Shown here in pieces: positions 5,384 through 23,465 of a stretch of DNA of 23,487 nucleotides (the stretch's first letter is position 1; every line of letters begins with the position of its first letter). The position numbers and the translations under genes were made by a program. Source of the stretch: an uncultured archaeon (GTDB lineage: Archaea > Asgardarchaeota > Heimdallarchaeia > Heimdallarchaeales > Heimdallarchaeaceae); the NCBI GenBank assembly GCA_964534625.1, contig CAZHRF010000045.1:1-23487 (forward strand), given 5' to 3'. Below the pieces are notes generated by a model. It made no database searches and was not told where the DNA came from. It worked only from the letters and a program-made list of their open reading frames with translations.

Positions 5384-5613
5384 CGTCTTCACCTAAGAGA
5401 TTAAAATACGTTCTATTTGATTTGACATTTAAACTTATTCATAAATATATTTGTTCTACTCCAAAGTATACCCACTTATGATATAAGTTAAGGTAGCAAA
5501 CATTGCGCCCTAGCAAATACCAATAGTAAAGCCTAGCATGTAAAATAATTGACAAGAGAAAAAGAAAAAATAAACTTTTAAAAACAAATGGAAAGAGATA
5601 TAGATAGATAGCA

Positions 5614-6540
5614 TTAGATTACGAAAAGTTGTAAGATCGTAAATAGACCAAGAAGTAACGTTACTGCGCCAACTGCTGGTTGCAACAGTTTTATATCAAT
5701 TGTTCGGACTGAAATAACAGCAAAGGGTATAGAAGCTATTGTTCCAATGAACAATGCAAGGAATAACCACCAATCAATAACAATTATACCACTTCCAATG
5801 TATACAATAACTGCAGCTATAGACACTATGCCTTCAGATAGTGAAGTATTAGCAACTGCTTCGCGTGGATTACGATCTGCTATTATCTGTCCTGAAGTAA
5901 TTAATGGTCCATATCCTCCTCCACTCATCCCTTTGTTAAAAGCAGATATAAATCCTAATATCCAAATCTTCCACCATTGAAATGTCCACTTAAACTTGAG
6001 CAATACAATAATACCACAAAGTGTTACCAACGAGCCTATATATGTTTTGACATATATTTCGGGTATATTCAGAGCAAGAAGTGCAGCAAATATTGAGCCT
6101 ATTATTCCACACACTGACAGTATAAGAGCTGTTTTCATATCCTGTGTGATAATAATTGATTTATCTTTTACAGTTACCATTGTTCCCCCATTCTCTGTTT
6201 TTTTAAAACGGTTTTGAATGGTATTTTGATTAAGATTTTCTTTGTCTTCGACTTGAGTTGTATTTACTTTTTTCGCGTCATTTTTCTCAAAGAAACTGAC
6301 ATTTCCGCCCATGTGATGCCCTGCTGCTGCCAAAAAACCTGTCACAGTTTCAGTGATTAAAACATAAAAGACAACTGCAGAAGCTGGAGACTGTATGGGC
6401 AATAAATCATAACTTAATATTATCATTAAAACAGGAACGAGGATCGTTCCATAACCTGCGCCTAAAGTTGAATCTATAAACTCACACATCAAAGCTATAA
6501 TACCTATTCCTGCATAGATCAATATTAAACTTGTTTCCAT
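5614..6540 (-). CDS. TauE/SafE (TSUP) family transporter, paralogue 2
   Basis: STLGAGYGT and GMSGGGYGP motifs; clear similarity to neighbour (VFYVLITETVTGF, AFNKG.SGGGYGP, DRNPR). Start moved to ATG 6540, which has GGTGTG upstream. Confidence 0.85.
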   Translation of the reverse strand: METSLILIYAGIGIIALMCEFIDSTLGAGYGTILVPVLMIILSYDLLPIQSPASAVVFYVLITETVTGFLAAAGHHMGGNVSFFEKNDAKKVNTTQVEDKENLNQNTIQNRFKKTENGGTMVTVKDKSIIITQDMKTALILSVCGIIGSIFAALLALNIPEIYVKTYIGSLVTLCGIIVLLKFKWTFQWWKIWILGFISAFNKGMSGGGYGPLITSGQIIADRNPREAVANTSLSEGIVSIAAVIVYIGSGIIVIDWWLFLALFIGTIASIPFAVISVRTIDIKLLQPAVGAVTLLLGLFTILQLFVI

Positions 6541-6699
6541 TAATACACACCAATATCTTTTGGTTTTAATTTTATATAGTTCATATAAATATTGTGTTAA
6601 ACCAAACATATTTGGCGTCAATATATGGTAGTCTTACATTGTTCTTTTTTTGTATATGTGGTGTTGGTGTCCAATACTGAGCTTCCTTACAAACCAAAG

Positions 6700-6720
6700 A
6701 CAATATATATTGTTTTTATA
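6700..6720 (+). promoter_or_regulatory. Perfect 14-bp palindrome ACAATATATATTGT abutting a TTTTATA box upstream of the AbrB-like gene
   Basis: Palindrome at 6700-6713, TTTTATA at 6714-6720, about 35 nt before ATG 6756, within a divergent promoter region. Confidence 0.4.
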
Positions 6721-6755
6721 CCAATACTTATTAACTTCACATACAATTTCCATCT

Positions 6756-6953
6756 ATGACTACTATTGATATTGATGAAGTCGAGTTTATTAGTGAAACA
6801 ACTCTAACAATTAGAGACAGTCGTCGCAGGACTACTGTGCCTAAAGAAATTGTTGAAAGTCTTGACTTTAAAGATGGAGATCGTCTTCGTTGGATTCTTT
6901 TTCATGACAAATCGATTATGGTAACAAAAGTTCAAAAAAAGATCAATAAATAA
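6756..6953 (+). CDS. AbrB/MazE/SpoVT-family DNA-binding protein
   Basis: 65 aa with RRTTVPKEIVESLDFKDGDRLRW swapped-hairpin signature. Confidence 0.75.
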   Translation: MTTIDIDEVEFISETTLTIRDSRRRTTVPKEIVESLDFKDGDRLRWILFHDKSIMVTKVQKKINK

Positions 6954-6995
6954 TTACAAACTTACTTCACTATTCAAAATTAATGGAAGATTATT

Positions 6996-7799
6996 ATGAA
7001 TTACAAATACTATTCAATTTTAAAGCCCCTCGTTGTTACTGGTGGTCTACTTCTCAAGTCTCATCAAGGTAAAGTTAGAAATATACCTAAAAAAAGTGAC
7101 CTCCCTGATTCAAAAGTAATGGAAAGTTCTACTGCCCATACTATTGTCGATGATATAGTACAAGATGTTGTATTAGAAAATTTATACAGTCACTTTCCTG
7201 ATATTTCGCTAAATGCAGAAGAAGAGACAGAAAGAGTGACATGGTTTAATACGGATAAAACAAAACGCTGTTTTCATTTAGATCCTCTTGATGGTACATT
7301 GGCTTATATCAAAAATCGTCAAGATTATGCTATTGGCGCTGCCATTTCCGATAATTTAACCTTTATTGCTAGTGCCATTTATTTTCCTGCCCAAGATAGA
7401 CTATTTTATGCAGAGAAAGATCGAGGATATGCCGTTTTTAACGCACTAGGAAAAGAATTACCTTTTACTCGTCCAGCAGAGCCTGATAGTACTTATGTAC
7501 AAAAAAGATGTGACGAGTATATCTACATCTTGGAAAAATTAGGTCTCTCTAAATTTGATAGCATGAGTGCATATTACACTATGATTTCTATTATGGAAGG
7601 CAAAGCAACTATGCAAATGTATCACATGGCTTCTTCTCACGATTTTGGTATACCCAGTGTTATTCTTGAAGAAGCAGGAGGAGTTTGTTGTGATTTGAAA
7701 GGAGATGATATTGAGTATGATAAAGAGTTTAATCGCGTTCCTTATTTCTTGGCTTTCTTTGATGAACATGCGAAAGATGAGTTTTTTAAATCTGTTTAG
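6996..7799 (+). CDS. Inositol monophosphatase family phosphatase, probable CysQ-like PAP/PAPS 3'-phosphatase
   Basis: TIVD, AEEE, DPLDGT, HD...ILEEAGG motifs; substrate inferred from adjacency to sat-cysC. Confidence 0.8.
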   Translation: MNYKYYSILKPLVVTGGLLLKSHQGKVRNIPKKSDLPDSKVMESSTAHTIVDDIVQDVVLENLYSHFPDISLNAEEETERVTWFNTDKTKRCFHLDPLDGTLAYIKNRQDYAIGAAISDNLTFIASAIYFPAQDRLFYAEKDRGYAVFNALGKELPFTRPAEPDSTYVQKRCDEYIYILEKLGLSKFDSMSAYYTMISIMEGKATMQMYHMASSHDFGIPSVILEEAGGVCCDLKGDDIEYDKEFNRVPYFLAFFDEHAKDEFFKSV

Positions 7800-7849
7800 A
7801 TTATTATAAAGATAAACTTTAAGCAACAGAAAAATTAACAAAGAAATAG

Positions 7850-7872
7850 AAAAAAGGAAGATTTTTCTTCCT
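7850..7872 (-). terminator. Hairpin plus T-run terminator downstream of sat-cysC
   Basis: AGGAAGA-tttt-TCTTCCT (7855-7872), followed on the minus strand by a T-run; lies between convergent genes. Confidence 0.5.
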
Positions 7873-7899
7873 AATTATATTTTATACTATATGAACACG

Positions 7900-9654
7900 T
7901 TATTTATCATGTGTATGTGTTTTTTGAATGTAGCCATAGTCTGCCAATACATCTAATACTTTCTGAACGCTTTCTTCTACTGTTTCTTTATTGGTTTCGC
8001 ATACTAGTTCTGGGTTAACTGGTTCTTCGTAGGGGTCACTTATACCTGTAAAATTCTTAATTATTCCCGCTTTTGCTTTATCATATAGTCCTTTTACATC
8101 TCTTTGTTCACATACTTCTATTGGTGCTTTAACATATACTTCAATGAAATTCCCAATTAATTGCCTTATCTCTTCTCTTATTGCCATATAAGGGGCGATA
8201 TTTGCCATTGTGACAATTACATTATTTCTTGTGAGCATATGAGCCAAGAACCCTACTCTACGGATATTCTTATCTCTATCTTCTTTTGTGAACCCTAAAT
8301 CTTTGGTTAAATGCTGTCTTACTACATCACCATCTAATCTTTCATTCGTATATCCACGTTTTGTTAACTCTTGATGCAAACGTTTTGCAATTGTAGTTTT
8401 TCCTGATCCACTTAAACCTGTTAAGAGAATTGTTACACCTTTTTGTTGGGGACCAATACCTCTTCCATTGTATGAATCATTAAGTATTAAAGCAACTTCT
8501 GGTCTTGAAAATTCTCTAGGTAACATTTTTCCTTCTGTGAGCATTTCTCTCACTTTTGTTCCAGAAAGATATACGTGGGCCTGATTCCCATGTGGGCATG
8601 TTTTTCTTGTTGACATCTGCTCACATATTTTACAGTAAAATGCGTGTTCAAATTTGAATGGTTTAATCCTTAATTCTTCTTCAGTAAAATTATCAAAAAT
8701 ATCTTGTGCATCGTATGTGCCATAGTAATTACCTACACCAGCATGATCTCTACCAACGATGAAATGCGTACAGCCATAATTTTGTCTGGCTATAGCATGC
8801 ATAATAGCTTCTCTAGGTCCAGCATATCTCATAGCTGCAGGAAAAACACCTAAGAAATATCTTCCCTCAGGATAATATGAATTAAGTATCACTCTATATG
8901 TTTCCATTCGCACATTAGAGGGAACATCATCAGCTTTTGTTGCCCCTACTAGTGGATTAACAAACAAACCATCTACTGACTCTAAGGCTACTTTTTGTAA
9001 ATACTCGTGTGCTCTATGAATTGGATTACGTGTTTGAAATGCAACAATAGATCTCCATTCTTTTTGTGCAAACTTTTGTCTTGTTTCAGCGGGAGTGAAC
9101 CTATGTTCTTCAAACTCTCTCTCTGGTAGGTCGTCAATTAGAACTATATCTCCTCCCAGATAAACATTTCCTTGTGCATAAAGGGCTTTTACTCCTGGAT
9201 GCGCACTATCGTCTGTGTTGAATACCTTTACTGCTTCATTCTTTTTATCAGGCCTATAGATGTCCTCTATTTTCATGATTCCAGCATAGGTTCCTTTCCA
9301 CATTAAGGCTATTTCATCATCTTCTTTTACTTTAGAAGCAAAATCATCTCCAGTTTGTAGGGTGACAGGTATTGGCCATACAGTTCCGTTGGTTAGGCGC
9401 ATAGTATCTACAACAGAATTATATTCCGCTTCATTCATAAAACCAGTTAGGGGAGAATAAATCCCTGTTGCTATACATTCGAGATCAGCAAAACCTCTTT
9501 CATCTAAATTAAATTTTATAAGAGATTTGGCTTTCTCTACGAGTTCAAATTTCTTTTCTTCATTTCTTTCAACAAGATCAATAAGTTTACCACCATGAGG
9601 TGGGATCAAATTAGTTTTCGTACTATTCGTTTTAATTTCGTCTTTTGCATTCAT
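7900..9654 (-). CDS. sat: Bifunctional sulfate adenylyltransferase / adenylylsulfate kinase (Sat-CysC fusion)
   Basis: PPHGG, FQTRNPIHRAHEY, GPREA, GRDHAG, Zn motif CKIC...CPH; C-terminal APS kinase with GLSGSGKTT, LDGDVVR, RDVKGLY, FTGISDPYE. Confidence 0.96.
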   Translation of the reverse strand: MNAKDEIKTNSTKTNLIPPHGGKLIDLVERNEEKKFELVEKAKSLIKFNLDERGFADLECIATGIYSPLTGFMNEAEYNSVVDTMRLTNGTVWPIPVTLQTGDDFASKVKEDDEIALMWKGTYAGIMKIEDIYRPDKKNEAVKVFNTDDSAHPGVKALYAQGNVYLGGDIVLIDDLPEREFEEHRFTPAETRQKFAQKEWRSIVAFQTRNPIHRAHEYLQKVALESVDGLFVNPLVGATKADDVPSNVRMETYRVILNSYYPEGRYFLGVFPAAMRYAGPREAIMHAIARQNYGCTHFIVGRDHAGVGNYYGTYDAQDIFDNFTEEELRIKPFKFEHAFYCKICEQMSTRKTCPHGNQAHVYLSGTKVREMLTEGKMLPREFSRPEVALILNDSYNGRGIGPQQKGVTILLTGLSGSGKTTIAKRLHQELTKRGYTNERLDGDVVRQHLTKDLGFTKEDRDKNIRRVGFLAHMLTRNNVIVTMANIAPYMAIREEIRQLIGNFIEVYVKAPIEVCEQRDVKGLYDKAKAGIIKNFTGISDPYEEPVNPELVCETNKETVEESVQKVLDVLADYGYIQKTHTHDK

Positions 9655-10044: not shown

Positions 10045-10185
10045 ATGAGTGAAGAAGAAAAAAAGATGGATGAGAATTTAAAGAAAGAATTACTGGAAAG
10101 AACAGGTGAAGCTAGCTCTGATGTTGATGATGTAGCTAAAAAACTGGAAGGAAAAATTCCTACTAAGAAGAAAGAAGAAGAGTAA
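10045..10185 (+). CDS. Small charged hypothetical protein, 46 aa (MSEEEKKMDENLKKELLERTGEASSDVDDVAKKLEGKIPTKKKEEE); not in ORF track
   Basis: ATG preceded by GTGATG RBS-like sequence; purine-rich coding-like island within pyrimidine-rich intergenic DNA; followed by T/C-rich terminator tract. Confidence 0.7.
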   Translation: MSEEEKKMDENLKKELLERTGEASSDVDDVAKKLEGKIPTKKKEEE

Positions 10186-10460: not shown

Positions 10461-11024
10461 ATGAACGTAAGTGAATTATTTCCCGAAATAAAAGAGATAG
10501 AGAATGTAGAGTTACGCGAGAAAGTGGTTAAAAGCGTCGAAAAAGCTTTAGCTGTTGGCGGTTGGAACCAAGAAGATCTTGAGTACATCCCTTCAACACT
10601 CCTGATACCTGAACTGATAGGTCAAGACAATAAAGCTGTAGTAACCCTTATTGACCACACACGTATGGTTACCCAGTTATCTATGGCTGTATATGATAGA
10701 TACGCTGAAGTTGGTTTCGCTGATAAAATTGATAGAGATATATTAATTGCTGGTGGCATATTACATGACATTGGAAAATTTGTCGAGTATGAGAAAGATG
10801 ATACTGGTAAAATTAAACAAAAATTGGCTGGTAAATATTTACGTCATCCCGCTCAAGGCTTAGAATTAGTCTATGAATTTGACCTCCCTCTTAAAGTTAA
10901 ACAAGCTATTATGTTTCACAGTAAAGAAGGTGATAAGATAAACAGATTTATTGAAGTTGATATTATCCACCGTTGCGATTTTCTCTGTTTTGATCCCATT
11001 AAAAAAATCTATGAAAAAAATTAA
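10461..11024 (+). CDS. HD (HDIG) domain metal-dependent phosphohydrolase
   Basis: H...ILHDIGK...RHP...FH...D metal ligands; GAGGT RBS; TTTTATAA boxes upstream; first gene of operon. Confidence 0.85.
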   Translation: MNVSELFPEIKEIENVELREKVVKSVEKALAVGGWNQEDLEYIPSTLLIPELIGQDNKAVVTLIDHTRMVTQLSMAVYDRYAEVGFADKIDRDILIAGGILHDIGKFVEYEKDDTGKIKQKLAGKYLRHPAQGLELVYEFDLPLKVKQAIMFHSKEGDKINRFIEVDIIHRCDFLCFDPIKKIYEKN

Positions 11025-11052
11025 ATAAAACCTATAGAGGAATCAACTTGAA

Positions 11053-12189
11053 ATGAAAAAATACAATGTAGCCGTTTTACCCGGTGATGGAATAGGTAAA
11101 GAAGTTACAGATGCAGCAATGAAAGTTCTTGATGCTGTAGGATTTAGTGAAAAAGCCGACTATACTTGGGGTGATATAGGTTGGGAATTCTGGCGAACAG
11201 AAGGCAACCCTCTTCCTGATCGTACCATTGAATTACTCAAACAAGCTGATTGTTGTTTGTTTTCAGCTATCACCTCTAAACCTAAAGAGGAAGCAGAACA
11301 AGAATTAATCCCTGATTTACAAGGAAAAGGGTTGGTTTATTCTAGTCCTATAGTTAAATTAAGACAGTTATTTGATTTATATATCAATCTCCGTCCATGT
11401 AAAGCCTATGCTGGTAATCCATTGAATTTTAGAGACGATTTGGATCTTGTTGTGTTTAGAGAAAACACAGAAGGGCTTTATGTAGGCATAGAATTTCATC
11501 CAGTACCTGAATCCGTAATGAACAATTTAGTTGAGAATCATCCTAAAGCGAAACGTTTTGCTGAAGAAAAATTAGATGATTTAGCTATGTCAGTTAGATT
11601 GTTTACCCGTAAAGGCGTAAGAAGAATTCTTAAAGCCAGCATGGATTATGCTAAAGAATATGAGTATCCCACTGTTACCGTAGTCGAAAAGCCTAATGTT
11701 ATTAGAGAAACAAGCGGTTTAATGATACGTGAAGCTAGGAAGCTTATCAAAGAGTATGAAGGCAAAGAACTTTGGGAAACAAATATTGATGCTATGTGCA
11801 TGTGGCTAGTTAAAAACCCTCAAAATTATGGTGTTCTTGTTGCTTCTAATATGTTTGGTGACATCATTTCTGATCTTTGTGCCCAATTAGTTGGTGGGTT
11901 AGGTTTTGCTTGTTCAGGTAATATTGGTGATGACTTTGCTGTTTTTGAACCCAGCCATGGGAGTGCACCCAAATATGTTGGTATGAACAAAGTCAATCCT
12001 ATTGCTCAAATTTTATCTGCTAAGATGATGGTAGCATGGCTTGGAGAAAAAGAGATGGCAGAAAAAATGGATAAAGCTGTTGCAGCTGTTATCGCTGAAG
12101 GAAAAGTCAGAACCTATGATATGGGTGGGAAGGCAACAACAACAGAAATGGCTGACGCCATCTGCGAGAAAATCAAGGAATTGAACTAA
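11053..12189 (+). CDS. Isocitrate/isopropylmalate dehydrogenase family, homoisocitrate-dehydrogenase-like, NADP-type cofactor motif
   Basis: PGDGIGKEV, YSSPIVKLRQ, NLRP, RENTEGLY, KPNV, NMFGDIISD, FEPSHGSAPKY, RTYDMGG. Confidence 0.9.
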   Translation: MKKYNVAVLPGDGIGKEVTDAAMKVLDAVGFSEKADYTWGDIGWEFWRTEGNPLPDRTIELLKQADCCLFSAITSKPKEEAEQELIPDLQGKGLVYSSPIVKLRQLFDLYINLRPCKAYAGNPLNFRDDLDLVVFRENTEGLYVGIEFHPVPESVMNNLVENHPKAKRFAEEKLDDLAMSVRLFTRKGVRRILKASMDYAKEYEYPTVTVVEKPNVIRETSGLMIREARKLIKEYEGKELWETNIDAMCMWLVKNPQNYGVLVASNMFGDIISDLCAQLVGGLGFACSGNIGDDFAVFEPSHGSAPKYVGMNKVNPIAQILSAKMMVAWLGEKEMAEKMDKAVAAVIAEGKVRTYDMGGKATTTEMADAICEKIKELN

Positions 12190-12249
12190 AACTTGTTCCT
12201 TGATATCTTTTTTTACTTTTCTAACAATTCTTTGAGATGAGAGCAACAA

Positions 12250-13512
12250 ATGACAGGATTAACATTAATAGAAAAAATCATTAAAAATCATTCTTCTTCT
12301 GATGATATTGATATCTACCCCGGAACAATTGTTTGGGTAGATTTAGACCTCGTGACTGCCCGTGATTATGCGGGACCACAAGTAATTGACCTTTTTGAAA
12401 CAAATTATTCTGATGCTGAACCTTTTGATACCAGTAAAATCATTTTCACTCCTGATTGTTACCCTTATGGTAATGATCCTAAACACGCTAAAGATCAAGA
12501 AAAAATACGTGTATTTGCTGATAAATATAATATACAAGTAACTGATTTAGGTTCAGGTATAGGTTCACATTTGATTTTTAGACGTGGCTTTGGTAAACCT
12601 GGAGATATAATCATTGGTGCTGATAGTCATTATAACATTCTTGGTGCTTTAGGTATATTAGGGCAAGGAGCAGGTGATGTTATGCTTGCCTTTGCTTTTA
12701 AGACGGGAAAATATTGGATTAAAGTACCTGAAACCGTTAAAGTAGTTCTAAAGGGCGAATATAAGTGGCCTACGACAGCTAAAGATTTAGCTTTATACGT
12801 TTTAAAACACTTACATGAGCATGGTGTAACAGGTAAATCTATAGAATTTTATGGTGATATTATTTCCAAGTTATCTATTGAAGATAGAGTAACTCTCTGT
12901 TCCTTAATAACAGAAGCAAGTGGAATGATTGGTTTTGTTCCAGCTGACCATATTACAGCTGAGTATTATGATAAATTGGGTATACCTATTGAGCAAACTC
13001 AAGCTGATGAAGATGCTACCTATTCTGATGAGATAATAATTGATATTCAAGATTTAGGTTTGCAAGTAGCTTGTCCTCCTCACCCTCACAATGTTAAACC
13101 CATTGAAGAGGTACTAGGTACTGAAATTAAATCTATTATCATAGGTAGTTGTACTAATGGTACCTATATGGATATTGAACACGCAGCAAAAATTTTGGAA
13201 AACAAAAAAGTTAATCCTAATGTGCGTTTAGCTGTTATTCCTGCTACACGTGGAGATTTTATTTCTTCCCATAAATCTAATCCTATGACTAGAATTCTTG
13301 AGGCTGGTGGAAACTTTTTTGGTGCAGGGTGTTCAACCTGTGCTAAAGGTCAGTATGGTTTAACTGGCGGTGAAACAGCTGTTACTTTAACTACTGGCAA
13401 TCGAAATACTCAAGGCAAAATTGGTCCAGCTGACGTTTATCTGGCCAGTCCTGTTGTTGCAGCTGCTACAGCTATTGCTGGTAAAATAGCCAAACCTGAG
13501 GTGAAAGATTAA
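12250..13512 (+). CDS. LeuC/HacA-type aconitase-family large subunit (divergent)
   Basis: GADSH, AKD, GSCTNG and GCSTC [4Fe-4S] cysteines, NRN, YLASP. Confidence 0.88.
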   Translation: MTGLTLIEKIIKNHSSSDDIDIYPGTIVWVDLDLVTARDYAGPQVIDLFETNYSDAEPFDTSKIIFTPDCYPYGNDPKHAKDQEKIRVFADKYNIQVTDLGSGIGSHLIFRRGFGKPGDIIIGADSHYNILGALGILGQGAGDVMLAFAFKTGKYWIKVPETVKVVLKGEYKWPTTAKDLALYVLKHLHEHGVTGKSIEFYGDIISKLSIEDRVTLCSLITEASGMIGFVPADHITAEYYDKLGIPIEQTQADEDATYSDEIIIDIQDLGLQVACPPHPHNVKPIEEVLGTEIKSIIIGSCTNGTYMDIEHAAKILENKKVNPNVRLAVIPATRGDFISSHKSNPMTRILEAGGNFFGAGCSTCAKGQYGLTGGETAVTLTTGNRNTQGKIGPADVYLASPVVAAATAIAGKIAKPEVKD

Positions 13513-14036
13513 TGAAAGACACACAAACAAAACTTGAAGGAAAAGCAAAAGTAGTAAAAGTTGATGATATAGATACGGATCAGATTTTTCATGCTTCGTT
13601 ATTAACAATCCATGAACCGGAGAAAATTAAGCCACATATTTTTGGCAATCTTGAAGGATTTGAAAGTTTTGGAGCTGATAATCACGAAGAAGAGATTCTT
13701 ATAGTAGGTAAGAACTTTGGTAAAGGATCTACCCGTCAACAAGCAGTGACTGGTTTTCTTGCTCATGGTATAAAAGCTATTATTGGCGAATCTTTTGGAC
13801 CTATTTATTATAGCAATGCGGTAAATGCTGGACTTCTTTTAGTTGAAGCCCCAGGTATTACTGATTTTACCATTGAAGATGGTGATCTTTTAGAAGTAGA
13901 TTTTGAGCACTCTAAAATAATAAATCAAACCAAAGACAAAAGTTTAGAGTGTAAGTCTATTCCTCAACCAGTTATCGATATTATGGAAGCTGGGGGTTTA
14001 CTTGAATTAGGTAAAAAAATGGAAAAAGGTGATTAA
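13512..14036 (+). CDS. LeuD/HacB-type aconitase-family small subunit (divergent)
   Basis: DIDTDQI, GKNFGKGSTRQQA, SFGPIY, AGGLL; TAATG stop/start overlap with the large subunit. Confidence 0.88.
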   Translation: MKDTQTKLEGKAKVVKVDDIDTDQIFHASLLTIHEPEKIKPHIFGNLEGFESFGADNHEEEILIVGKNFGKGSTRQQAVTGFLAHGIKAIIGESFGPIYYSNAVNAGLLLVEAPGITDFTIEDGDLLEVDFEHSKIINQTKDKSLECKSIPQPVIDIMEAGGLLELGKKMEKGD

Positions 14037-14037
14037 T

Positions 14038-15894
14038 ATGAGTAAAACATTTGCAGAAAAATTATTTTCTTTAAAATCTGGTGAAGACGCCTATGCTGGT
14101 GATATAGTCTTTGCTGAACCAGATTTGGTATTATCACATGATAATTCAGCATCGATTATGAAAACTTGGCAAAAGATGGGCGGAAAAGAAATCAAATATC
14201 CTGATAGACTCGTTATTGTCTTAGATCATGATTCTCCTCCTACCAGTGCGAAATTAGCCAATGACCATCAAATAATTAGAGATTTGGTTAAAGACCAAGG
14301 TATAACTAATTTTTATGATGAAGGAACAGGTATTTGTCATCAACTTATGTCTAATCATGCTCTCCCTGATATGCTTATTGTAGGTTCAGATTCACACACT
14401 TGTACAAGTGGAACCTTTGATGCTTTTGCAGCGGGTATTGACCGTACTGAAACCGCAGGGCTCTGGTTAACTGGAGAGACATGGTTTAGAGTGCCAGAAA
14501 CTATTAAAATTACATTAAAAGGTAAACTTCAACATGGTGTCTATGCTAAAGATATAGCTTTGTATTTGATGAACCAAATAGGTGCTTCTGGATCTACTTA
14601 CAATTCAATTGAATTTCATGGAGAAGGGGTTAAAACTTTAGGTATATCAGAAAGAATGACTCTGGCTAACTTAGCTTCTGAGATGGGAGCTAAAAACGCT
14701 GTTTTCCCTCCTGATGAGGTGTTAATTGAGTGGTTGAAGGACAAGCATGGTGACGCTTTAGACATACCTAAAGAGGATATGCTTTGGGCAGATGAAGGAG
14801 CCACATATATCAAAGAACTAACTGTCGAGTTAGATAAACTTGAACCTCTTATTGCTGTTCCTCATCAAGTTGATAATATAGACTTTGCCCGTAAATTAGG
14901 CGATGTAAATATCCATCAAGCGTTTTTAGGTACATGTACTAATGCCCGATTAGATGATTTGGCTATTGCTGCTGAATTACTTGAAGGAAAGACAATTCAT
15001 TCTGGTATGATCTTTCTTGTTGCTCCCGCTTCCCGTGCAATTTATCTGGAATCTCAAGAGAAAGGATATATTCAGACTCTTACTCGAGCTGGTGCTACTA
15101 TCTTGACTTGCAGTTGTGGTCCTTGTTTAGGTAAAGGGCAAGGCATACCTTATGATGGTGCTAATGTAATTTCTACTGCCAACAGAAATTTCTTGGGTAG
15201 AATGGGTAACAAAAATGCTTTTGTTTATCTTGCTTCTCCAGCTACTGTTGCTATATCGGCTTTAACAGGGAAAATTACTGATCCTCGACAATATATTTCA
15301 AGTGCTGAAGTAAAAGAAACAGGTATAGAACTTAGACAAAAAGAAGAATTTGTAACAGTTGAGATTGAAGCTTCTGATGACCGATATAAAAATAATGTAT
15401 GGAATTATAGCGATGTAAATGATTTTAATACTGATCAAATGTTTGCTGGCACACTTACTTATGATATCAAATCTTCTGATGGTGAAAAAATCGTTGAGCA
15501 CTTGTTTAAAGGGTTAGATGAAACCTTTGCTGCTAGAGTGTCAAAAGGTGATATCATAGTTGCTGGCGAAAACTTTGGCTGTGGATCATCCAGAGAACAT
15601 CCTTCTGTGGGATTGGCTTTTGCAGAAGTTAAAGCTGTTATTGTTAAATCTGTTTCAAGGATTTTTTATCGCTCTGCAATCAATCAAGGTTTGCCTATTA
15701 TTGTCCACCCAGATTTTGTCGAAAACTTAAATCATGACGCACCTATTGAAATTTATCTAAAAGAAGGAACCATAGTAAATGGTGAAAATAATTATTCTTT
15801 CTCCAAACTCCCTAAAGACCTGTTAAAGATTTTTGAAGCGGGAGGATTAATAAATTACTATCAAGAACAATATTTAACTCCGGAGGAAAATTAA
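14038..15894 (+). CDS. Fused LeuC-LeuD (homoaconitase-like) dehydratase
   Basis: HDNS, DH, GICHQ, GSDSHTCT, GTCTN, SCGPCLG, NRNFLGRMG, then NTDQ, NFGCGSSREH, RIFYR in one ORF; ATG 14038 follows an AGGTGA RBS. Confidence 0.92.
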   Translation: MSKTFAEKLFSLKSGEDAYAGDIVFAEPDLVLSHDNSASIMKTWQKMGGKEIKYPDRLVIVLDHDSPPTSAKLANDHQIIRDLVKDQGITNFYDEGTGICHQLMSNHALPDMLIVGSDSHTCTSGTFDAFAAGIDRTETAGLWLTGETWFRVPETIKITLKGKLQHGVYAKDIALYLMNQIGASGSTYNSIEFHGEGVKTLGISERMTLANLASEMGAKNAVFPPDEVLIEWLKDKHGDALDIPKEDMLWADEGATYIKELTVELDKLEPLIAVPHQVDNIDFARKLGDVNIHQAFLGTCTNARLDDLAIAAELLEGKTIHSGMIFLVAPASRAIYLESQEKGYIQTLTRAGATILTCSCGPCLGKGQGIPYDGANVISTANRNFLGRMGNKNAFVYLASPATVAISALTGKITDPRQYISSAEVKETGIELRQKEEFVTVEIEASDDRYKNNVWNYSDVNDFNTDQMFAGTLTYDIKSSDGEKIVEHLFKGLDETFAARVSKGDIIVAGENFGCGSSREHPSVGLAFAEVKAVIVKSVSRIFYRSAINQGLPIIVHPDFVENLNHDAPIEIYLKEGTIVNGENNYSFSKLPKDLLKIFEAGGLINYYQEQYLTPEEN

Positions 15895-15897
15895 CAC

Positions 15898-17202
15898 ATG
15901 AGACTATACGAATACGAATCTAAACAGATATTTGAGAAATATGGTTTAACTATACCCTCTCAAATTGCTGTTATCGAACATACAGATGATATTGATAAAT
16001 TGGATCTATCTATCCCTTTCCCTGTCATGGTTAAAGCCATGGTACTTATAGGGGGAAGAGGTAAAGCTGGTGGAATTAAAAAAGCGAATGATATCCAATC
16101 TCTCAAAGAAAAATCTTCAACTATTTTTGATCTTTCTATTCATGGTTATTCGATTGAACAATTATTGATAGAAGAAGCTGTAGATATTGCTCAAGAAATT
16201 TATCTTTCTGTTACTACTGATCCCGAAACCTTTGATTTGGTTTTAGTTACCAGCGCTAGTGGTGGTGTTGATATTGAACAGATAGCTAAAACTAAACCTG
16301 ATGAAATCTGGAAAAAGAAGTTATTAGATAATCGTAAAGAATTATCTGATACTATAGCAGATGAAGCTGTTCAGTTTTTACTTGAAAAAAATTCTTCACT
16401 CAAAGCTGCAACAAAGGAACTCAAAGCTGCCATTAAATCGTTATTTTTTGCTTTTCAAGATATTGATGCCAAGATATGCGAAATTAATCCTTTAATTGTT
16501 ACTCCTGCTAATGAAGTCATTGCAGCTGACGCTAAAGTCGTTTTAGATGATAATAGTTTGTATAGAGAAGCTGCTTTACTAAAATCAATAGGTATAGATC
16601 CTCGAAGTAAGCGTCATGATGTAGCGGAACAGACAGTTTTTGAAGAAAGAGCATATAAAATTGGTTTTCCCTATGTTGATCTTTTAGATACTCCTTCTGA
16701 ATATGTAAAGGATGAAGATAAATTATATGTGGGTATTGTTCCTGGTGGGGCTGGTTACGGTATTTTTTCTATTGACGAAGTAGTCAATGTTGGTAACAGA
16801 TATTTTGATGGTAAAGTTCTTCCTATCAATTTTATGGATAGTGGGGGCGGTCCCTCTTTAGATAAAGTTGCGGAAATGTTTCATCTCTTAATGGATCATC
16901 CAGCAACAGATATCGTTATTACTAGCCGTTTTGGTGGTATCTCTAGTTGTGATGTATTTATTCGTGGTTTAATTCTTGCTCTTCGAGATAGGCATATGAA
17001 TGATAAACGTATGTTGCCTGTTTATGGTCGTATGGTTGGTACAGATTTAGCTGCCGCACGAGCTTATCTTGAAAAAGCAAAAAGCGAAACACCCGAACCT
17101 TTAGCTGACCTTCATATTACAGTAGGTAATAAGAAAATTATGGCAGAGATTATCAAAGATGGTATCGCTTATGGATTTAAAGTTAAAGGAGAAAAGGAGT
17201 GA
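15898..17202 (+). CDS. Succinyl-/citryl-CoA synthetase beta-like subunit (ATP-grasp acyl-CoA ligase), divergent substrate domain
   Basis: MRLYEYESK, KAMVLIGGRGKAGG, SGGVDIE, EINPL, ADAK..LDDNS; C-terminal GAG, NFMDSGGG, FGGI..CD. Confidence 0.88.
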   Translation: MRLYEYESKQIFEKYGLTIPSQIAVIEHTDDIDKLDLSIPFPVMVKAMVLIGGRGKAGGIKKANDIQSLKEKSSTIFDLSIHGYSIEQLLIEEAVDIAQEIYLSVTTDPETFDLVLVTSASGGVDIEQIAKTKPDEIWKKKLLDNRKELSDTIADEAVQFLLEKNSSLKAATKELKAAIKSLFFAFQDIDAKICEINPLIVTPANEVIAADAKVVLDDNSLYREAALLKSIGIDPRSKRHDVAEQTVFEERAYKIGFPYVDLLDTPSEYVKDEDKLYVGIVPGGAGYGIFSIDEVVNVGNRYFDGKVLPINFMDSGGGPSLDKVAEMFHLLMDHPATDIVITSRFGGISSCDVFIRGLILALRDRHMNDKRMLPVYGRMVGTDLAAARAYLEKAKSETPEPLADLHITVGNKKIMAEIIKDGIAYGFKVKGEKE

Positions 17203-17207
17203 TAATT

Positions 17208-19349
17208 ATGGCTAAAAATAAATTACAAGCAGATCAAGGTTTACTTTCTTACTTTATTAAGCAAGTCAGACCAGAACTAGCTAAGAAAATAACTCAAATG
17301 AAAACTATTGAGACAATGATTGTAGGATTAGGTCGCCAAGGAACTAGGCATGCCCAATTGATGATGGAATATGGTACTAATGTTACTTGTGGTGTCGCCC
17401 CTGGAAAAGGTGGAACTAAAGTTCATGAAACCATTCCCGTTTATGAAACAGCTGAGGAAGCAGTTAAATATCATCCTAATATTGCTGTTGCGAGTATTTG
17501 GAGACATTATTCTACAGCTAAGGATGCAACAATTGAAGTTATACGTTCTGGTATACCCATAGTTGTATTAATTTCCGAATTTATTCCTCTAAAAGATGTA
17601 CGAGATATATTGGTTGAAGCCCGAAAACATAATACTATTTTGTTTGGTGGCAATACTCCTGGTATTATCTTTCCTCCTGAAGGAATTAAAGTAGGTATGC
17701 TTCCTGATATTTTTCAACCTGAACTAATTAATGATGATGTTGGTCCTAATGGTGTAAGCATTCTCTCTCGTAGTGGAGCTATCTTATACCATATGTCTGA
17801 TGCTTTATCTAGTGCTGGTATTGCCCAAAATGGTGTTTTTGGTGTTGGAGGTGACGCAGCTATTGGTTCTCGTTTTGTTGATTTAGTTCCCCGTATTATG
17901 GGGTATGAACATACTGATCTAGTTGTTATTGCTGGTGAAATTGGTGGCGCTCAAGAAGAGTTACTTGCACAAGATATGAAGGAGCATCCTGAGAACTATC
18001 CTAAACCATTAGTAGCTTTAATTTCTGGTGCTAATGCTCCCGAAGGTAAAACAATGGGTCATGCTGGTGCTGTTATTGCTCCTGGTAGGAGTTATGGTAC
18101 CTTTGAATCTAAAAAATCTGCCCTTGAAGAAGCTGGAGTAACTGTTGTTAACAGCCAAATTGATCTCATTGAGGTTGTAAAAAAGACACTTAACAAACAA
18201 TACTTTGAAATTGACACTTATTATGAAAAGATGCGCGAAAAATGGAATGCTAAACCTCCAGAACCAACGTGGGGAACGCTTATCACTAATGTTATTCCCA
18301 ATAATTTACTTGTTAGAGGCTATCCTCTCCAAGAAGTAATTGAGCATAAAGGTTTTCTTGAGACTGCTTGTTTGTTATACAGTGGTGAATTTCTAGGTGA
18401 TGAAATCAAAGAAATTGAACAAATAGCTATTGATGCCGCTATGGTGCCTTGTAAACATCAATTAGAGTTTACTGATGCTTCAGATTTCTCTAAAAAATTG
18501 GGTACATACTTGCTATTAGATAATGACTTGGCTGAATATGCAAAGAATGACCAATCCTCTAAGGTAGTGGCGTATATTCTAGGTCGGGCTTTGAGATTTA
18601 TTTCAACTATCCTTGGTACTACCTCTGTTTTAGATTCTGTTAAAGATCAAGCTGTTTTCTTCAATGATTTGATTTATTTAGGCTTTGTTGGTGAAAAAGA
18701 AACCGATACCGCCAAAATCAGATTATTGGAAGCTATGATTACTGCGTGTGTTGACCATGGTATAACTCCTCCTTCTGCTCAGACTACCCGCGTTCTAGCT
18801 TCAACAAGGACCAACTTTGAAGTAGCTGTAGCAGGCGGAATCGAAGCCATAACTGATGTCCATGGTGGAGCCGGGAAAAAAGCTGCTGATTTCTTCCTCT
18901 CTGTTGTCAATAAGTCCAATGAAGAGAACAAAGAAATAGATGATGCTACATTTGACTTAATGGATCAAACAATTAAAGCTGGGAAAAGAATTGAAGGGTT
19001 AGGACATAGAATACACACCCGTGACCCCCGACGTGATGTACTCTGGACCTTAGCTGAAAAATCTGGTTATGCAGGTGAATGTGTTTCTGTATCCAAAATC
19101 ATTAGCAATGTGTTTTATAGAGTAAGAGGAATGAACTTACCCATTAATGTTGATGGGGTTATAGGTGCTATAACAGCTGATATGGGATTAGATCCTAATT
19201 TAGCTAAAGCCATTTTCGTCTTTGGGAGAATAGCCGGATTATCTGCTCATTATAATGAAGAAGTTAACACTCAACCTAAAATGAGAAGAATAGCATTTGA
19301 GAGAGCAGTATATAAAGGAGAATCTAAAAGAACTTTAGAAAGTGAGTGA
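17208..19349 (+). CDS. SucD-like CoA-ligase alpha subunit fused to a citrate-synthase-fold (citryl-CoA lyase-like) domain; AclA-like architecture
   Basis: GVAPGKGG, SRSG, GEIGG, phospho-His MGHAGA; then RGY, DHG, HGGA, GLGHRIH, DPR, NVDG, GR.AG..AH. ATG 17208 follows GGAGTGA. Confidence 0.9.
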   Translation: MAKNKLQADQGLLSYFIKQVRPELAKKITQMKTIETMIVGLGRQGTRHAQLMMEYGTNVTCGVAPGKGGTKVHETIPVYETAEEAVKYHPNIAVASIWRHYSTAKDATIEVIRSGIPIVVLISEFIPLKDVRDILVEARKHNTILFGGNTPGIIFPPEGIKVGMLPDIFQPELINDDVGPNGVSILSRSGAILYHMSDALSSAGIAQNGVFGVGGDAAIGSRFVDLVPRIMGYEHTDLVVIAGEIGGAQEELLAQDMKEHPENYPKPLVALISGANAPEGKTMGHAGAVIAPGRSYGTFESKKSALEEAGVTVVNSQIDLIEVVKKTLNKQYFEIDTYYEKMREKWNAKPPEPTWGTLITNVIPNNLLVRGYPLQEVIEHKGFLETACLLYSGEFLGDEIKEIEQIAIDAAMVPCKHQLEFTDASDFSKKLGTYLLLDNDLAEYAKNDQSSKVVAYILGRALRFISTILGTTSVLDSVKDQAVFFNDLIYLGFVGEKETDTAKIRLLEAMITACVDHGITPPSAQTTRVLASTRTNFEVAVAGGIEAITDVHGGAGKKAADFFLSVVNKSNEENKEIDDATFDLMDQTIKAGKRIEGLGHRIHTRDPRRDVLWTLAEKSGYAGECVSVSKIISNVFYRVRGMNLPINVDGVIGAITADMGLDPNLAKAIFVFGRIAGLSAHYNEEVNTQPKMRRIAFERAVYKGESKRTLESE

Positions 19350-19912: not shown

Positions 19913-20092
19913 ATGGCTGACATATTATTAGTAAAATCTAAGGTAAGAGAATACGTCAAAGAACTCGGTGAATATAACATCTCCGGCGACTTTATTGAAG
20001 CTATGAGCAAAGAAGTTGAGACATTGATCAAGAAAGCTGCTGATAGAACAGCTGCTAACAAGAGAAAAACCATCTCTGCTCGCGACGTGTAA
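19913..20092 (+). CDS. Histone-fold protein, 59 aa, truncated-alpha3 type (face-to-face/Bd0055-like); not in ORF track
   Basis: MADILLVKSKVREYVKELGEYNISGDFIEAMSKEVETLIKKAADRTAANKRKTISARDV: VKSKV alpha1, N-I-S loop, long alpha2, RKTIxxxD clamp, ending immediately after it; strong RBS. Confidence 0.92.
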   Translation: MADILLVKSKVREYVKELGEYNISGDFIEAMSKEVETLIKKAADRTAANKRKTISARDV

Positions 20093-20442: not shown

Positions 20443-21438
20443 TCACACTACTATCTCATCTATTCTTTTTTGTTCTATTGCCATTTTTATTTCTCTTGCT
20501 ATCCTTTTTCCCATACTCATTTGTTCATTGAATAATATTTGAGAGTATGGTGATCCTTGAATATATAATGATGTTCCTGCTACTATTCTACTTGTGAACT
20601 CGAAAGCCACCATTTCTGTTGGCGTTAATGCTAGTTCTATGCAGTAAGGTCCTATTAATCCTGGTGGGAACAATTCATTTGATTTTGCTTTTAATTGATC
20701 TCCATATTTAAGCATTTTAGGTACCCATGATTCTCTTGCTATTAGTGGCTGGTTGCCCACTACTGTATAGCTGGGTTTGACATAGGATTCTTTTTCTTGA
20801 GATAGTCTGCCTAATGCATCTACATTAGTTTCATATCGTCTATCGATTCCTAACATTTCTACTCTATCATATATTGGAGAGTAAAAGTAATGGGGATACA
20901 TTGTCACACCTACTATATACTCTTGTATTATAGCCTTCTTTGCTTCTTTTTCTGTTATTTCCTCTCCCTTGATTTTTTGTTCTATTTTCTTCTTGAAATC
21001 CGCTTCTGATGAACATAAGAAATATCCTTGCCCACCTTTGGCACCGGGGAATTTGACTATCACTAAGCCATCTATTTCTTCAGGTTTATAGAGTTTAGGC
21101 GTTCTTATTCCAGCTTCTTTAACTATCTTATCGTTCCATTCTCGTCGCATTTCCCATATCATGCCTTTCTTATTGCCTAACATGGGTATTTTCATATCTT
21201 GGACTCTTTCACCTAAGTTATCTATTATTGTTCCATGGGGGATTAGTATGGTATCATCATCATCTTTTTCCAACATTTCTTCATAACTTTCAAATGTTAC
21301 TATCTCATCTGCTACAGGATATCTTTCATACAAGAATTCTCTGCCTTTTATGACATATACCCTTGTTTTCATCTGTTCTTGTTTAGCTCCATATAAGATT
21401 TGTAAAGCCGAATGGCTTCCTACTGTTGATATTATCAT
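20443..21438 (-). CDS. purP: PurP-family formate--phosphoribosylaminoimidazolecarboxamide ligase (ATP-grasp)
   Basis: GSHSALQI..GAK, IPHGT, KFPGAKGG.GYF, LGIDRRYE, VVGN, GPYCIE, SRIVAGT; ATG at 21438. Confidence 0.9.
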   Translation of the reverse strand: MIISTVGSHSALQILYGAKQEQMKTRVYVIKGREFLYERYPVADEIVTFESYEEMLEKDDDDTILIPHGTIIDNLGERVQDMKIPMLGNKKGMIWEMRREWNDKIVKEAGIRTPKLYKPEEIDGLVIVKFPGAKGGQGYFLCSSEADFKKKIEQKIKGEEITEKEAKKAIIQEYIVGVTMYPHYFYSPIYDRVEMLGIDRRYETNVDALGRLSQEKESYVKPSYTVVGNQPLIARESWVPKMLKYGDQLKAKSNELFPPGLIGPYCIELALTPTEMVAFEFTSRIVAGTSLYIQGSPYSQILFNEQMSMGKRIAREIKMAIEQKRIDEIVV

Positions 21439-21599
21439 TTGCAATCTATGTTTTCTACTTTTTATCCTTTTAAAGATTTTATGCCTTAGAAGTTGCTTTT
21501 CCCTCCTTTCTTTTTGGAAGTAAAAGTTATATACACACCTTCTATTTTATTTTAGCGTTGTTTATTCAATACTTCTGATACTCTTGGAGTTCTGATATT

Positions 21600-22301
21600 T
21601 TGAAACTTGGCATCATCTCTGACATTCACTCGAATTACCCTGCGCTTAAAACCGTCATGGAATATTTCGACAAACAAGACATTTTTACGGTCATTTGTGC
21701 TGGAGATGTTGTTGGGTATTATACCAGCCCTAACATTTGTTGTGATATAGTTAAAATTCGTTGTCAATATACTGTTAAAGGCAATCATGATGCTGCTGTT
21801 ACTGGTAATACCCTAGAACTTTCTTTTTTTAATTCCGAAGCTTCTTTTAGCAATTTCTGGAATGAATTCAAACTTAAAGATATAAACAAATTATGGCTTA
21901 AGAATCTTCCAGAACGAGAACGATTCAAAATTAACAGTATATCCTTTCTTTTAGTTCATGGTACTCCTTCTGATCCCTATGACTATCTCGTTCCTGGGGA
22001 GACTTCGTCATGGGATAAAAAGCTATCATCTATTTTTGCCTCAGTTCCTGAAGATGTTTTGATTGTTGGCCATACCCATAAGCCTAAGGTTTGGTATGGC
22101 GATGATAAAATATTTATCAATCCTGGTGCAATAGGACAACCTCGTGACAGAGATTCTAGGGCTTCTTTTGCTGTTTTTGATACTATCACACGAAAGGCTG
22201 AAATTATTCGTCTAGAGTATCCTATCGAGAAAACTATTGAACACGCAAAAAGTTTTGGTATCTCAAAATTTCTTGCAGAAAGACTTAGAAAAGGCATGTA
22301 A
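21600..22301 (+). CDS. Calcineurin-like metallophosphoesterase (YfcE/MJ0936-related)
   Basis: SDIHSN, GDVVGY, GNHD, VHG, GHTH, NPGAIGQPRD; TTG start. Confidence 0.9.
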   Translation: MKLGIISDIHSNYPALKTVMEYFDKQDIFTVICAGDVVGYYTSPNICCDIVKIRCQYTVKGNHDAAVTGNTLELSFFNSEASFSNFWNEFKLKDINKLWLKNLPERERFKINSISFLLVHGTPSDPYDYLVPGETSSWDKKLSSIFASVPEDVLIVGHTHKPKVWYGDDKIFINPGAIGQPRDRDSRASFAVFDTITRKAEIIRLEYPIEKTIEHAKSFGISKFLAERLRKGM

Positions 22302-22382
22302 TCAAACTTCCCTTCTTTTCTTTACGCTTATCCTTAAAAGAAAAGTTCCTCCTGCTTTTAGTTTTATTTTTTGTTGTTTTTC

Positions 22383-23465
22383 TTATGTTGTTACTTTGTC
22401 TAGCATACCTTTTCGTATTGCCCTTTTAATTTCCATCGCCACTCTTCTTCCAGCTGAGACTGGTTCACCCCAGAATACCCATGAATATTGGCTTCCACGC
22501 CCCATAAAAGAATTCGTTCCTCCGCCCATTCGCATGGATACATCAAAAACAACAAAATCATAGTTTTTAGTGATCATTGTCTGCAGAGCAAAAGGACCTA
22601 TTATCCCTGGAGGGTAAAATTCTTTTGCTGCTTCTACGAATCCATCTCCCATTGGGAAAACATATCTTAACATGGATTCTCTTAATGTTACAGCAAAATT
22701 ACCTATCTCTTTGTATTCTTCCTCTAACGCTAATTTTTCTTGCTGCTTATAGGGTAATCGTACTATTCCATCAAGATCCGTTACCCATCGGCGATCAATA
22801 CCCAATAATTCAACTCGATCATATGTCGGTGAATAAAACAAATTAAAATTAAATGGTACTCCAGGCACAAACTCTTCTATTGACGCTTCTTTTAGGTCTT
22901 CCTTCTTTATTATCCCTTCCTTTACCCTCTTCTCAAATTCTTTCTCAAAATCTTCTTTATTCTTTGCTACAAAAAACCCTCTTTCTACTTTCTGCGTAGC
23001 ATGGGGCATTTTTACTATTATAGGGCTTTCTATATCTTCTGGTTTTTCATATACTCTTGGATATTTTATCTTTGCTTTTTTTAATATCTTATAATAGTTA
23101 TGCTCTCCTGTTCTCTCTTCAACTTTTAATAACCTTCTACTTCCAAATAGAGGTATTTTAAACTTTTTTTCTATTTCTTCTTTTCCACAGTAAACAAAAA
23201 ATGATCTATTTGGTACAAATATGGTGTTTTTTTCTTCTAACTGATTCTGTACTGCATATATATCCGCGAATTTGTCTAGTAGGATCATTTTATCTATTAT
23301 TCTCTCAAATCTTTCATATGGTCCTTCTCTTCCTTTTTCACAAATTACTACTGTCTCGAATCCTTCCCTTTTTGCTCCATCTAACACATCTAATGCAGAG
23401 TGTGATCCAAGTACTCCTATTGTTATCTTTTCTTTATCATATTGATGTATGTTCTTATTTGTCAT
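22383..23465 (-). CDS. purP: PurP-like protein, second paralogue
   Basis: GSHSALDVLDGAKREGF, VPNRSF, ERGFF, LGIDRR, GPFALQ, DVSMRMGGGTN; GAGGG RBS. Confidence 0.88.
   Translation of the reverse strand: MTNKNIHQYDKEKITIGVLGSHSALDVLDGAKREGFETVVICEKGREGPYERFERIIDKMILLDKFADIYAVQNQLEEKNTIFVPNRSFFVYCGKEEIEKKFKIPLFGSRRLLKVEERTGEHNYYKILKKAKIKYPRVYEKPEDIESPIIVKMPHATQKVERGFFVAKNKEDFEKEFEKRVKEGIIKKEDLKEASIEEFVPGVPFNFNLFYSPTYDRVELLGIDRRWVTDLDGIVRLPYKQQEKLALEEEYKEIGNFAVTLRESMLRYVFPMGDGFVEAAKEFYPPGIIGPFALQTMITKNYDFVVFDVSMRMGGGTNSFMGRGSQYSWVFWGEPVSAGRRVAMEIKRAIRKGMLDKVTT

Follow-up and report, generated by a model that had tools for sequence, protein, structure and literature searches.

A conserved seven-gene operon of Heimdallarchaeaceae with a SucCD-like ligase and a fused citrate-synthase-fold lyase: a candidate homocitrate-cleaving module

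Which tricarboxylate is handled, and in which direction, by an archaeal operon that combines an ATP-dependent CoA ligase fused to a citrate-synthase-fold lyase with two aconitase-type dehydratases, a decarboxylating dehydrogenase and an HD-domain hydrolase? The question is raised by positions 10461-19349 of a 23,487-nucleotide stretch (the window, meaning the whole stretch analysed) from contig C45 of a 3.37-Mb metagenome-assembled genome (G000; completeness 89.8%), whose window proteins have their closest named homologues in Ca. Heimdallarchaeaceae and other Asgards. From genes, domains, motifs, phylogeny and co-occurrence, which are the evidence in hand, we infer the substrate, stereochemistry, direction and physiological role of the module and the function of its HD protein. 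To the reading of the operon as a C7-tricarboxylate module working in the cleaving direction, 2-oxoadipate + CO2 -> acetyl-CoA + 2-oxoglutarate, we give an even chance. Somewhat short of even is the chance that it represents an undescribed CO2-fixing chain shortening via (S)-homocitrate, with three new activities: an ATP-homocitrate lyase of independent evolution, in which a SucCD offshoot is fused to a Ccl returned to citrate-synthase length, an (S)-homocitrate hydro-lyase of the aconitase family without His101, and possibly an HD lactonase.

Operon layout and distribution

The seven open reading frames (ORFs) are intact and lie on the + strand, separated in operon order by 28, 60, −1, −8, 3 and −4 nt, and their domain calls agree with the co-directional set described at these coordinates by an earlier analysis of the letters alone (the sequence-only reading). 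That reading counted on co-conservation of the genes, and this was borne out: the identical seven-gene order was found in nine of nine family genomes fetched, at loci L133, L005 and L112 and in three metagenome contigs, and the set recurs in other lineages. The arrangement is not due to chance. Promoter and terminator scans of the operon gave signals no better than those of shuffled sequence.

The alpha subunit fusion is present in 23 of 28 family genomes, and the module occurs in other Asgards, Thermoplasmata, Planctomycetota and Bipolaricaulota, with shuffled gene order and variable fusion of the dehydratase genes. Carriage of the ligase and fusion is patchy (7 of 61 genomes in a Thermoplasmata order, 5 of 351 in Planctomycetota). 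Complete operons exist in metagenomic bacteria and Planctomycetota, often right after Kor-type oxidoreductase genes, which lie immediately upstream in L176, L184, L185 and L244; an upstream CoA-transferase of L185 has succinate-glutarate CoA-transferase as its best model, at 393 bits and below the cut-off of 750. Thermoplasmata carry HD-beta-alpha, frequently followed by LeuC1D1, with the remaining genes elsewhere. In Hodarchaeales-like genomes the ligase pair adjoins CitF, and the HD gene is paired with the dehydrogenase near both dehydratases. Three Planctomycetes combine a stand-alone Ccl with the HD gene, both dehydratases and the dehydrogenase, and a single contig reads CitDE-CitF-HD-LeuC2-LeuD2-dehydrogenase-PrpD. 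The slots for activator/lyase, two dehydratases, dehydrogenase and HD protein are thus constant while the parts that fill them change, and the set therefore looks like a real pathway. The module is real, conserved and horizontally spread. A GTDB scan with the alpha alignment was dominated by SucD matches and contained seven true members; plasmid searches returned no full-length fusion, and matches in Legionella, Pusillibacter, Collinsella and Pseudoroseomonas were uninformative.

Several neighbourhoods of the module deserve a record of their own. At L199:13416-16164 the fused alpha gene is followed by CitF and by a separate 355-aa copy of the lyase, again of citrate-synthase length. In Thermoplasmata (L111:1835-6248, L006:1-4165) HD-beta-alpha often stands downstream of mevalonate genes (GHMP kinase, UbiD, AcnX large and small subunits), a proximity that is possibly only lineage synteny. 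After the operon, L184:15074-19815 holds a cluster that by eye resembles benzoyl-CoA reductase or 2-hydroxyacyl-CoA dehydratase and is a possible source of glutaryl-CoA. A gene cluster of the Hodarchaeales-like genome G256 that resembles those of bacterial microcompartments begins with a 614-aa citrate-synthase fusion (L154:2-9279). In the same genome and its relatives (L135:12653-17795) the genes after the HD-dehydrogenase pair encode a MoaD-like protein and an aldehyde:ferredoxin oxidoreductase of 727 aa, a candidate oxidiser of aminoadipate semialdehyde with an orthologue on contig C11 of G000.

The enzymes and their active sites

The SucC-like beta subunit (15898-17202, + strand, as are all genes of the operon) is an ATP-grasp protein with near-invariant PGGAG and SRFGGISSCD loops. 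The latter stands where ATP-citrate lyase (ACL) has GGIANFT, and the arginine position of VRRGG is occupied by M379 (13 family tree rows, 29 aligned homologues); in ACL the GGIANFT loop and the VRRGG arginine serve citrate binding. In trees that are unrooted, have long branches, hold two Asgard ACLs as the only ACL references and include no citryl-CoA synthetase (Ccs) sequences, the beta chains form their own clade (support 100/100) on a long stem, adjoining SucC and far from AclB. Sequence and structure searches of the PDB rank succinyl-CoA synthetase (SCS) first for the beta chain, CcsA second and AclB third. With phmmer the ligase chains score 172 against 90 bits and 190 against 105 bits for SCS and Ccs, respectively, and Foldseek likewise places SCS above Ccs for the ligase.

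The alpha subunit (17199-19349; probable ATG start at 17208, giving 713 aa) joins a SucD-like CoA-binding/phospho-His domain to a lyase domain that is related to Ccl and has the length of a citrate synthase; pairing of alpha and beta chains is textbook for such ligases. Phospho-His H285 and the lyase residues H517, H552, H600, R608, D649, R674 and R693 are invariant in 22 homologues. The best match of the lyase domain is Ccl (6hxp, 117 bits, against 34 for AclA), and in the tree of this domain, subject to the limits given for the beta tree, it clusters with stand-alone Ccl and not with AclA (clade support 96); the catalytic His, Asp and Arg of Ccl are present, and the PRK06224 models score under cut-off. 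The domain carries about 90 additional residues, which seem to repeat the N-terminal Ccl motif. The predicted structure of the alpha chain (pLDDT 90.6) has a complete citrate-synthase fold (against 3hwk, Z 33.6 over 325 residues), since these added residues occupy the space; against Ccl the lyase model has 34% identity and an rmsd of 2.3, and its top structural match is methylcitrate synthase, tied with citrate synthases. Membership of AclBA or CcsAB was rejected on trees, phmmer and structure searches, and from these unrooted trees without Ccs the layout is read as a probable independent origin of the ACL architecture.

The beta-decarboxylating dehydrogenase (11053-12189; Iso_dh family) has the AksF2 homoisocitrate dehydrogenase as its top NCBIfam model, at 322 bits and below the cut-off of 540. 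Its substrate helix, Y96-R104, reads YSSPIVKLR, with the same residues as in the S. pombe homoisocitrate dehydrogenase (HICDH) 3ty3, a short alignment (E 0.015) that alone is not significant. True isocitrate dehydrogenases (IDHs) carry an SxNV helix (E. coli Ser113/Asn115), where the module enzyme has S98-P99-I100-V101, S98 being the equivalent of Ser113, and lacks the IDH asparagine. The cofactor loop is HGSAPKY (K307-Y308), as against HGSAPDI of NAD-type enzymes, and appears to be of the NADP type; in this loop and in its score the enzyme departs from curated HICDH. The module dehydrogenases form a single clade (95/94) separate from Icd and LeuB.

The two dehydratases differ in their active sites. 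LeuC1 (12250-13512), the large subunit of dehydratase 1 and a member of the [4Fe-4S] aconitase family, retains by motif and homologue alignment the cluster cysteines C301, C361 and C364 and the serine base; few of its 50%-identity clusters exceed 40% identity. Its equivalent of aconitase His101, a residue with an acid role in that enzyme (PMC8184944), corresponds to C70, with Cys at this position in 41 of 44 homologues; all 44 have GIG[ST]H as the His147 motif (GIGSH here) and Lys, here K390, at the place of Arg452. The small subunit LeuD1 (13512-14036), with 116 bits to TIGR02087 (cut-off 109), has a subfamily-specific loop and an RQQA motif; Thermoplasmata and several bacteria have it in one chain with LeuC1. 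LeuC1D1 has a remodelled active site and is a candidate (S)-homocitrate hydro-lyase. It is substituted by PrpD in L182, L350 and G303, and PrpD acts on the acyl-CoA-derived arm, out of reach for aconitase (PMC3556520). Dehydratase 2, a LeuC2-LeuD2 fusion (14029-15894; probable ATG start at 14038), has a canonical site in which DH, GICHQ and the Arg452 equivalent are retained in 31-32 of 32 homologues. It passes TIGR01343 hacA_fam (473 bits, cut-off 386) and fails TIGR00139 (337 bits, cut-off 530); it appears homoaconitate-hydratase-like, in a subfamily that includes isopropylmalate isomerases and so does not fix the substrate. Split homologues contain a GKYTY loop, probably the one known from fungal Lys4. 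A third dehydratase type, with an Arg-containing small-subunit loop like that of methanogen HacB, occurs at L201, L230, L235 and L241. One row of the dehydratase tree (C2_L239) is a wrong-frame ORF and is to be disregarded.

The HD-domain metallohydrolase (10461-11024, 187 aa; PF01966, 43 bits) belongs to a module-specific subfamily with no close relative among solved structures; a search of the ESM Atlas returned only generic HD and CoA-ligase clusters. Its gene is found at 23 of 27 metagenome loci with at least 12 kb around the beta gene and also accompanies the stand-alone-Ccl and CitDEF versions. Homocitrate, unlike citrate, readily gives a gamma-lactone (PMC3556520), and for this reason the constant HD partner might, speculatively, be a homocitrate lactonase that opens it.

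Substrate and direction

Taking together the ligase/lyase, the dehydratases and the dehydrogenase, we propose the following model. The dehydrogenase would reductively carboxylate 2-oxoadipate to homoisocitrate with NADPH, the 2-oxoadipate being derived either from lysine or, by way of the 2-oxoacid:ferredoxin oxidoreductase that bacterial versions have as a linked enzyme, from glutaryl-CoA. LeuC2D2 would dehydrate homoisocitrate to cis-homoaconitate, which LeuC1D1, or PrpD elsewhere, would rehydrate to (S)-homocitrate, the enantiomer of the compound in the lysine pathway. Homocitryl-CoA would then be formed by the beta/alpha ligase with ATP and phospho-His285, and split by the fused lyase domain into acetyl-CoA and 2-oxoglutarate. 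The net reaction would be 2-oxoadipate + CO2 + NADPH + ATP + CoA -> acetyl-CoA + 2-oxoglutarate + ADP + Pi + NADP+. The module would in this way resemble the arm of the reverse Krebs cycle that cleaves citrate, with a substrate longer by one carbon.

The stereochemistry proposed for the model follows from the lyase. The pro-S arm is the one taken off by ACL, Ccl and CitE alike, and by Cahn-Ingold-Prelog rules the homocitrate for such a lyase would have to be the (S) form. Since geometry of the aconitase type leads to (R)-homocitrate, a special (S)-homocitrate hydro-lyase would be needed; this need is predicted to account for the odd site of LeuC1 and its exchange for PrpD. Isomerisation of homocitrate takes two enzymes in fungi and Thermus, and that of citrate takes one (PMC3556520).

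Cleavage is favoured because cleavage-type CitF or full CitDEF accompanies or replaces the ligase/lyase in some loci, because the cofactor loop appears NADP-type, and because the characterised ACL and CCS/CCL operate as cleavage enzymes. For a peptide fermenter the gain would be salvage of lysine carbon, supply of 2-oxoglutarate and disposal of NADPH. By our own accounting, if Kor, SucCD and a presumed ADP-forming acetate-CoA ligase carried the products onward, the yield of ATP and reduced ferredoxin would equal that of oxidation to glutarate; compared with that direct oxidation, the route would re-oxidise one NADPH more and provide 2-oxoglutarate in a lineage without another route to it from citrate. 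With a linked Kor-type enzyme and glutaryl-CoA as its start, the route would parallel, at one carbon more, the half of the reverse Krebs cycle in which carboxylation takes place.

The genome of the window bears on checks that the sequence-only reading had proposed. It encodes a separate, normal SucCD on contig C6, no further aconitase, IDH or citrate-synthase-fold gene, and no DRE-TIM condensing enzyme (PF00682), which is likewise not found in the 18 family genomes searched. The same reading is upheld in part, its core claim included: it treated the ligase pair as something other than AclAB, a view that the separate beta and lyase clades support. It left several routes open, among which reductive cleavage of 2-oxoadipate is the one best supported, and use in lysine synthesis is unsupported, with no LysX in G000 or the 18 family genomes. 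Its C6 arm of a reverse tricarboxylic acid (TCA) cycle is weakened by relatives with a canonical ACL operon, the operon of G000 still holding the only such genes there. Its judgement that the substrate cannot be read from the letters was too pessimistic: site motifs point to homocitrate and homoisocitrate as the probable substrates.

The strongest substrate argument is redundancy with citrate enzymes. Closed G256 has an AclB-AclA-Icd-aconitase operon, AcnA and a PrpB/C/D cluster together with the entire second set, aconitase-Icd-AclB is present in six of seven Thermoplasmata carriers, Bipolaricaulota G303 has a separate Icd, LeuB and leucine operon, and an additional IDH, of the SxNV type, is encoded separately in Planctomycetes G562, G637 and G652. 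Because relatives hold the set beside an ordinary ACL-aconitase-Icd operon, plain citrate metabolism is probably not its task. Kin among these genomes are not independent, so that the argument amounts to about four lineages, and this is one of several points that weigh against a C7 substrate. In G000 and the 15 family carriers checked the operon holds the sole aconitase, IDH and citrate-synthase-fold genes; as G000 also has Sdh, fumarases, SucCD and Kor/Por-type oxidoreductases, use of citrate would close a TCA cycle. The lyase retains every oxaloacetate-binding residue and shows no obvious adjustment to 2-oxoglutarate, the longer acid; none of the NCBIfam equivalog scores reaches its cut-off, and L201, L230 and L235 have the third-type dehydratase only, with no LeuC1 at the locus. 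In favour of the C7 reading stand the Kor-type genes and the CoA-transferase upstream of some loci and, in G000 as in most carriers, a gene of the saccharopine/lysine-6-dehydrogenase family, which is close to the module dehydrogenase in G304 and G360 only; G000 also encodes glutamate dehydrogenases. PF16653 occurs outside the carriers too, and among the carriers searched Borrarchaeum and four Planctomycetes lack it. A specific genomic tie to lysine catabolism (PF03435 and PF16653 tried) was accordingly set aside as compatible and not discriminating.

These facts give some weight to a citrate (C6) arm of the TCA cycle assembled out of unusual components, with the sequence acetyl-CoA + oxaloacetate <-> citrate <-> isocitrate <-> 2-oxoglutarate, or to a promiscuous module that serves citrate in this family. 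The known CitDEF/CitF members are citrate enzymes, Kor lies upstream and SucCD downstream in L185, and three Planctomycetes have the module dehydrogenase only. We nevertheless consider a citrate arm unlikely. It would be redundant in the genomes just listed, its dehydrogenase lacks the SxNV asparagine, citrate requires one dehydratase and not two, nor PrpD, the closed family genomes G026 and G074, which lack the fusion, survive without any aconitase or IDH, and no SdhB was seen in carriers G003, G157 and G304. Another asymmetric substrate for the same architecture, such as a longer homologue (2-oxopimelate series), an alkylmalate or 2-methylcitrate, is less probable still. The logic of two dehydratases or PrpD suits any Si-face product except citrate, every equivalog score is under cut-off, and methylcitrate synthase heads the structural matches of the lyase; S98 and three lyase arginines, however, suggest a dicarboxylic 2-oxoacid. 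For 2-methylcitrate in particular, 2-methylisocitrate is a tertiary alcohol and hence not oxidisable by the dehydrogenase, no PrpB match over cut-off was found in the incomplete genomes G000 and G003 (G130 has one PF13714 protein, a 435-aa frame), and G256 has its own Prp cluster; the methylcitrate cycle was rejected on the missing PrpB and the wrong chemistry.

The homocitrate motifs would fit equally a module running forward, with ATP-conserving condensation of acetyl-CoA and 2-oxoglutarate towards 2-oxoadipate and then glutaryl-CoA or lysine. The missing DRE-TIM homocitrate synthase of the family, the full citrate-synthase length of the lyase, linked Kor-type genes that could oxidise 2-oxoadipate, and Borrarchaeum carriers that have LysX and lack the saccharopine/lysine dehydrogenase are in its favour. 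We regard it as the least probable of the readings. Of the searched carriers (Heimdallarchaeia, Thermoplasmata, bacteria and Borrarchaeum) all but Borrarchaeum, which owns DRE-TIM enzymes, lack LysX, and this makes lysine synthesis unlikely; filling of a hole in lysine biosynthesis was rejected for this lineage on the lack of LysX. Glutaryl-CoA as the end product is disfavoured by the lack of any acyl-CoA dehydrogenase, hence of a glutaryl-CoA dehydrogenase, in G000 at its 90% completeness; relatives, including the non-carrier G026, have one acyl-CoA dehydrogenase, under all cut-offs. Replacement by CitDEF implies cleavage, and by our own estimate ATP from the condensation would be marginal at cellular ATP/ADP ratios. 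CitF itself was not found in G000.

If the homocitrate-cleaving reading is right, carbon from lysine and glutarate would have an unrecognised route that involves one or two carboxylations and is found in bacteria and archaea of sediments, among them the archaeal class to which eukaryotes are closest. Some calls of 'ATP-citrate lyase', 'rTCA' or 'complete TCA' in Asgard and Thermoplasmata MAGs could in that case be mis-annotations, as the alpha chain goes under 'citrate synthase' or 'succinyl-CoA synthetase' in databases. The parts seen of surveys that mention 'ACL homologues' in Asgards and Thermoplasmatota do not treat the module clade (10.1101/2022.10.25.513756; PMC9802188; PMC11237513). In the open-access literature no description was found of the module, of homocitryl-CoA cleavage, of a homocitrate lyase or of reductive carboxylation of 2-oxoadipate. 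Whatever the substrate, the ACL architecture would have arisen a second time in the module, and the finding that a Ccl-like sequence can adopt the full fold of citrate synthase bears on the origin of that enzyme. The question is directly testable, since the proteins look soluble and each step has a simple assay.

The rest of the window holds other genes. In a sulfate-activation cluster (4508-9654), a TauE-family transporter (5614-6621) and a neighbour like it (4508-5392) are accompanied by a gene of the CysQ/inositol-monophosphatase family and by an ATP sulfurylase fused to APS kinase; there is no reductase close by. A 46-aa highly charged ORF (10045-10185, + strand), of uncertain status as a gene, lies about 275 nt upstream of the HD gene. 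A 59-aa basic ORF (19913-20092, + strand), without a Pfam match at E 0.001, presumably resembles a short histone-fold protein, and on the − strand a probable metallophosphoesterase lies between two PurP-like paralogues (DUF1246/DUF1297; 20443-23465).

Comparison with known systems

The module shares with AclBA (Chlorobium limicola 6hxj, Methanothrix 6hxi and human ACLY) an ATP-grasp beta chain, a ligase-lyase alpha fusion and the catalytic His, Asp and Arg set. It differs in the beta chain, which lacks GGIANFT and the VRRGG arginine and lies far away in the tree, and in a lyase that is about 90 residues longer and groups with Ccl. True AclBA coexists with the module in the same genomes, and the latter looks like an independent fusion. 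By sequence, the lyase domain has its nearest relative in Ccl, which with CcsAB forms the system of Hydrogenobacter thermophilus (6hxq, 6hxp), and versions of the module with stand-alone Ccl exist. The module ligase is, however, nearer to SucC/SucD, its lyase is fused and of citrate-synthase length, and its partners are two LeuCD-type dehydratases, a HICDH-like dehydrogenase and the HD protein.

The first half of the alpha-aminoadipate pathway of lysine (Lys20/21 or LysS, Aco2 and Lys4 or LysTU, Lys12 or HICDH) likewise has two dehydratases and a dehydrogenase between homocitrate and 2-oxoadipate (PMC3556520). Its Lys12-type dehydrogenase helix is that of the module, which in place of a DRE-TIM synthase has the CoA ligase/lyase, lacks LysX, has a dehydrogenase of apparent NADP type, is predicted to use (S)- and not (R)-homocitrate, and probably runs in the opposite direction. 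The 2-methylcitrate cycle (PrpC, PrpD or AcnD with PrpF, AcnB, PrpB) also combines a C-C step in a citrate-synthase fold with two dehydratases, and its PrpD family enters some versions of the module; it ends in PrpB, whereas the module ends in a decarboxylating dehydrogenase and has an ATP-dependent ligase, and G256 keeps its Prp cluster separate. The nearest relatives of the ligase are SucCD and MtkAB. Mtk with malyl-CoA lyase (Mcl) offers the precedent of a SucCD offshoot that feeds a C-C lyase; the module differs from these systems in altered substrate loops, a long stem branch and a lyase of the citrate-synthase fold, where Mcl is of the CitE type.

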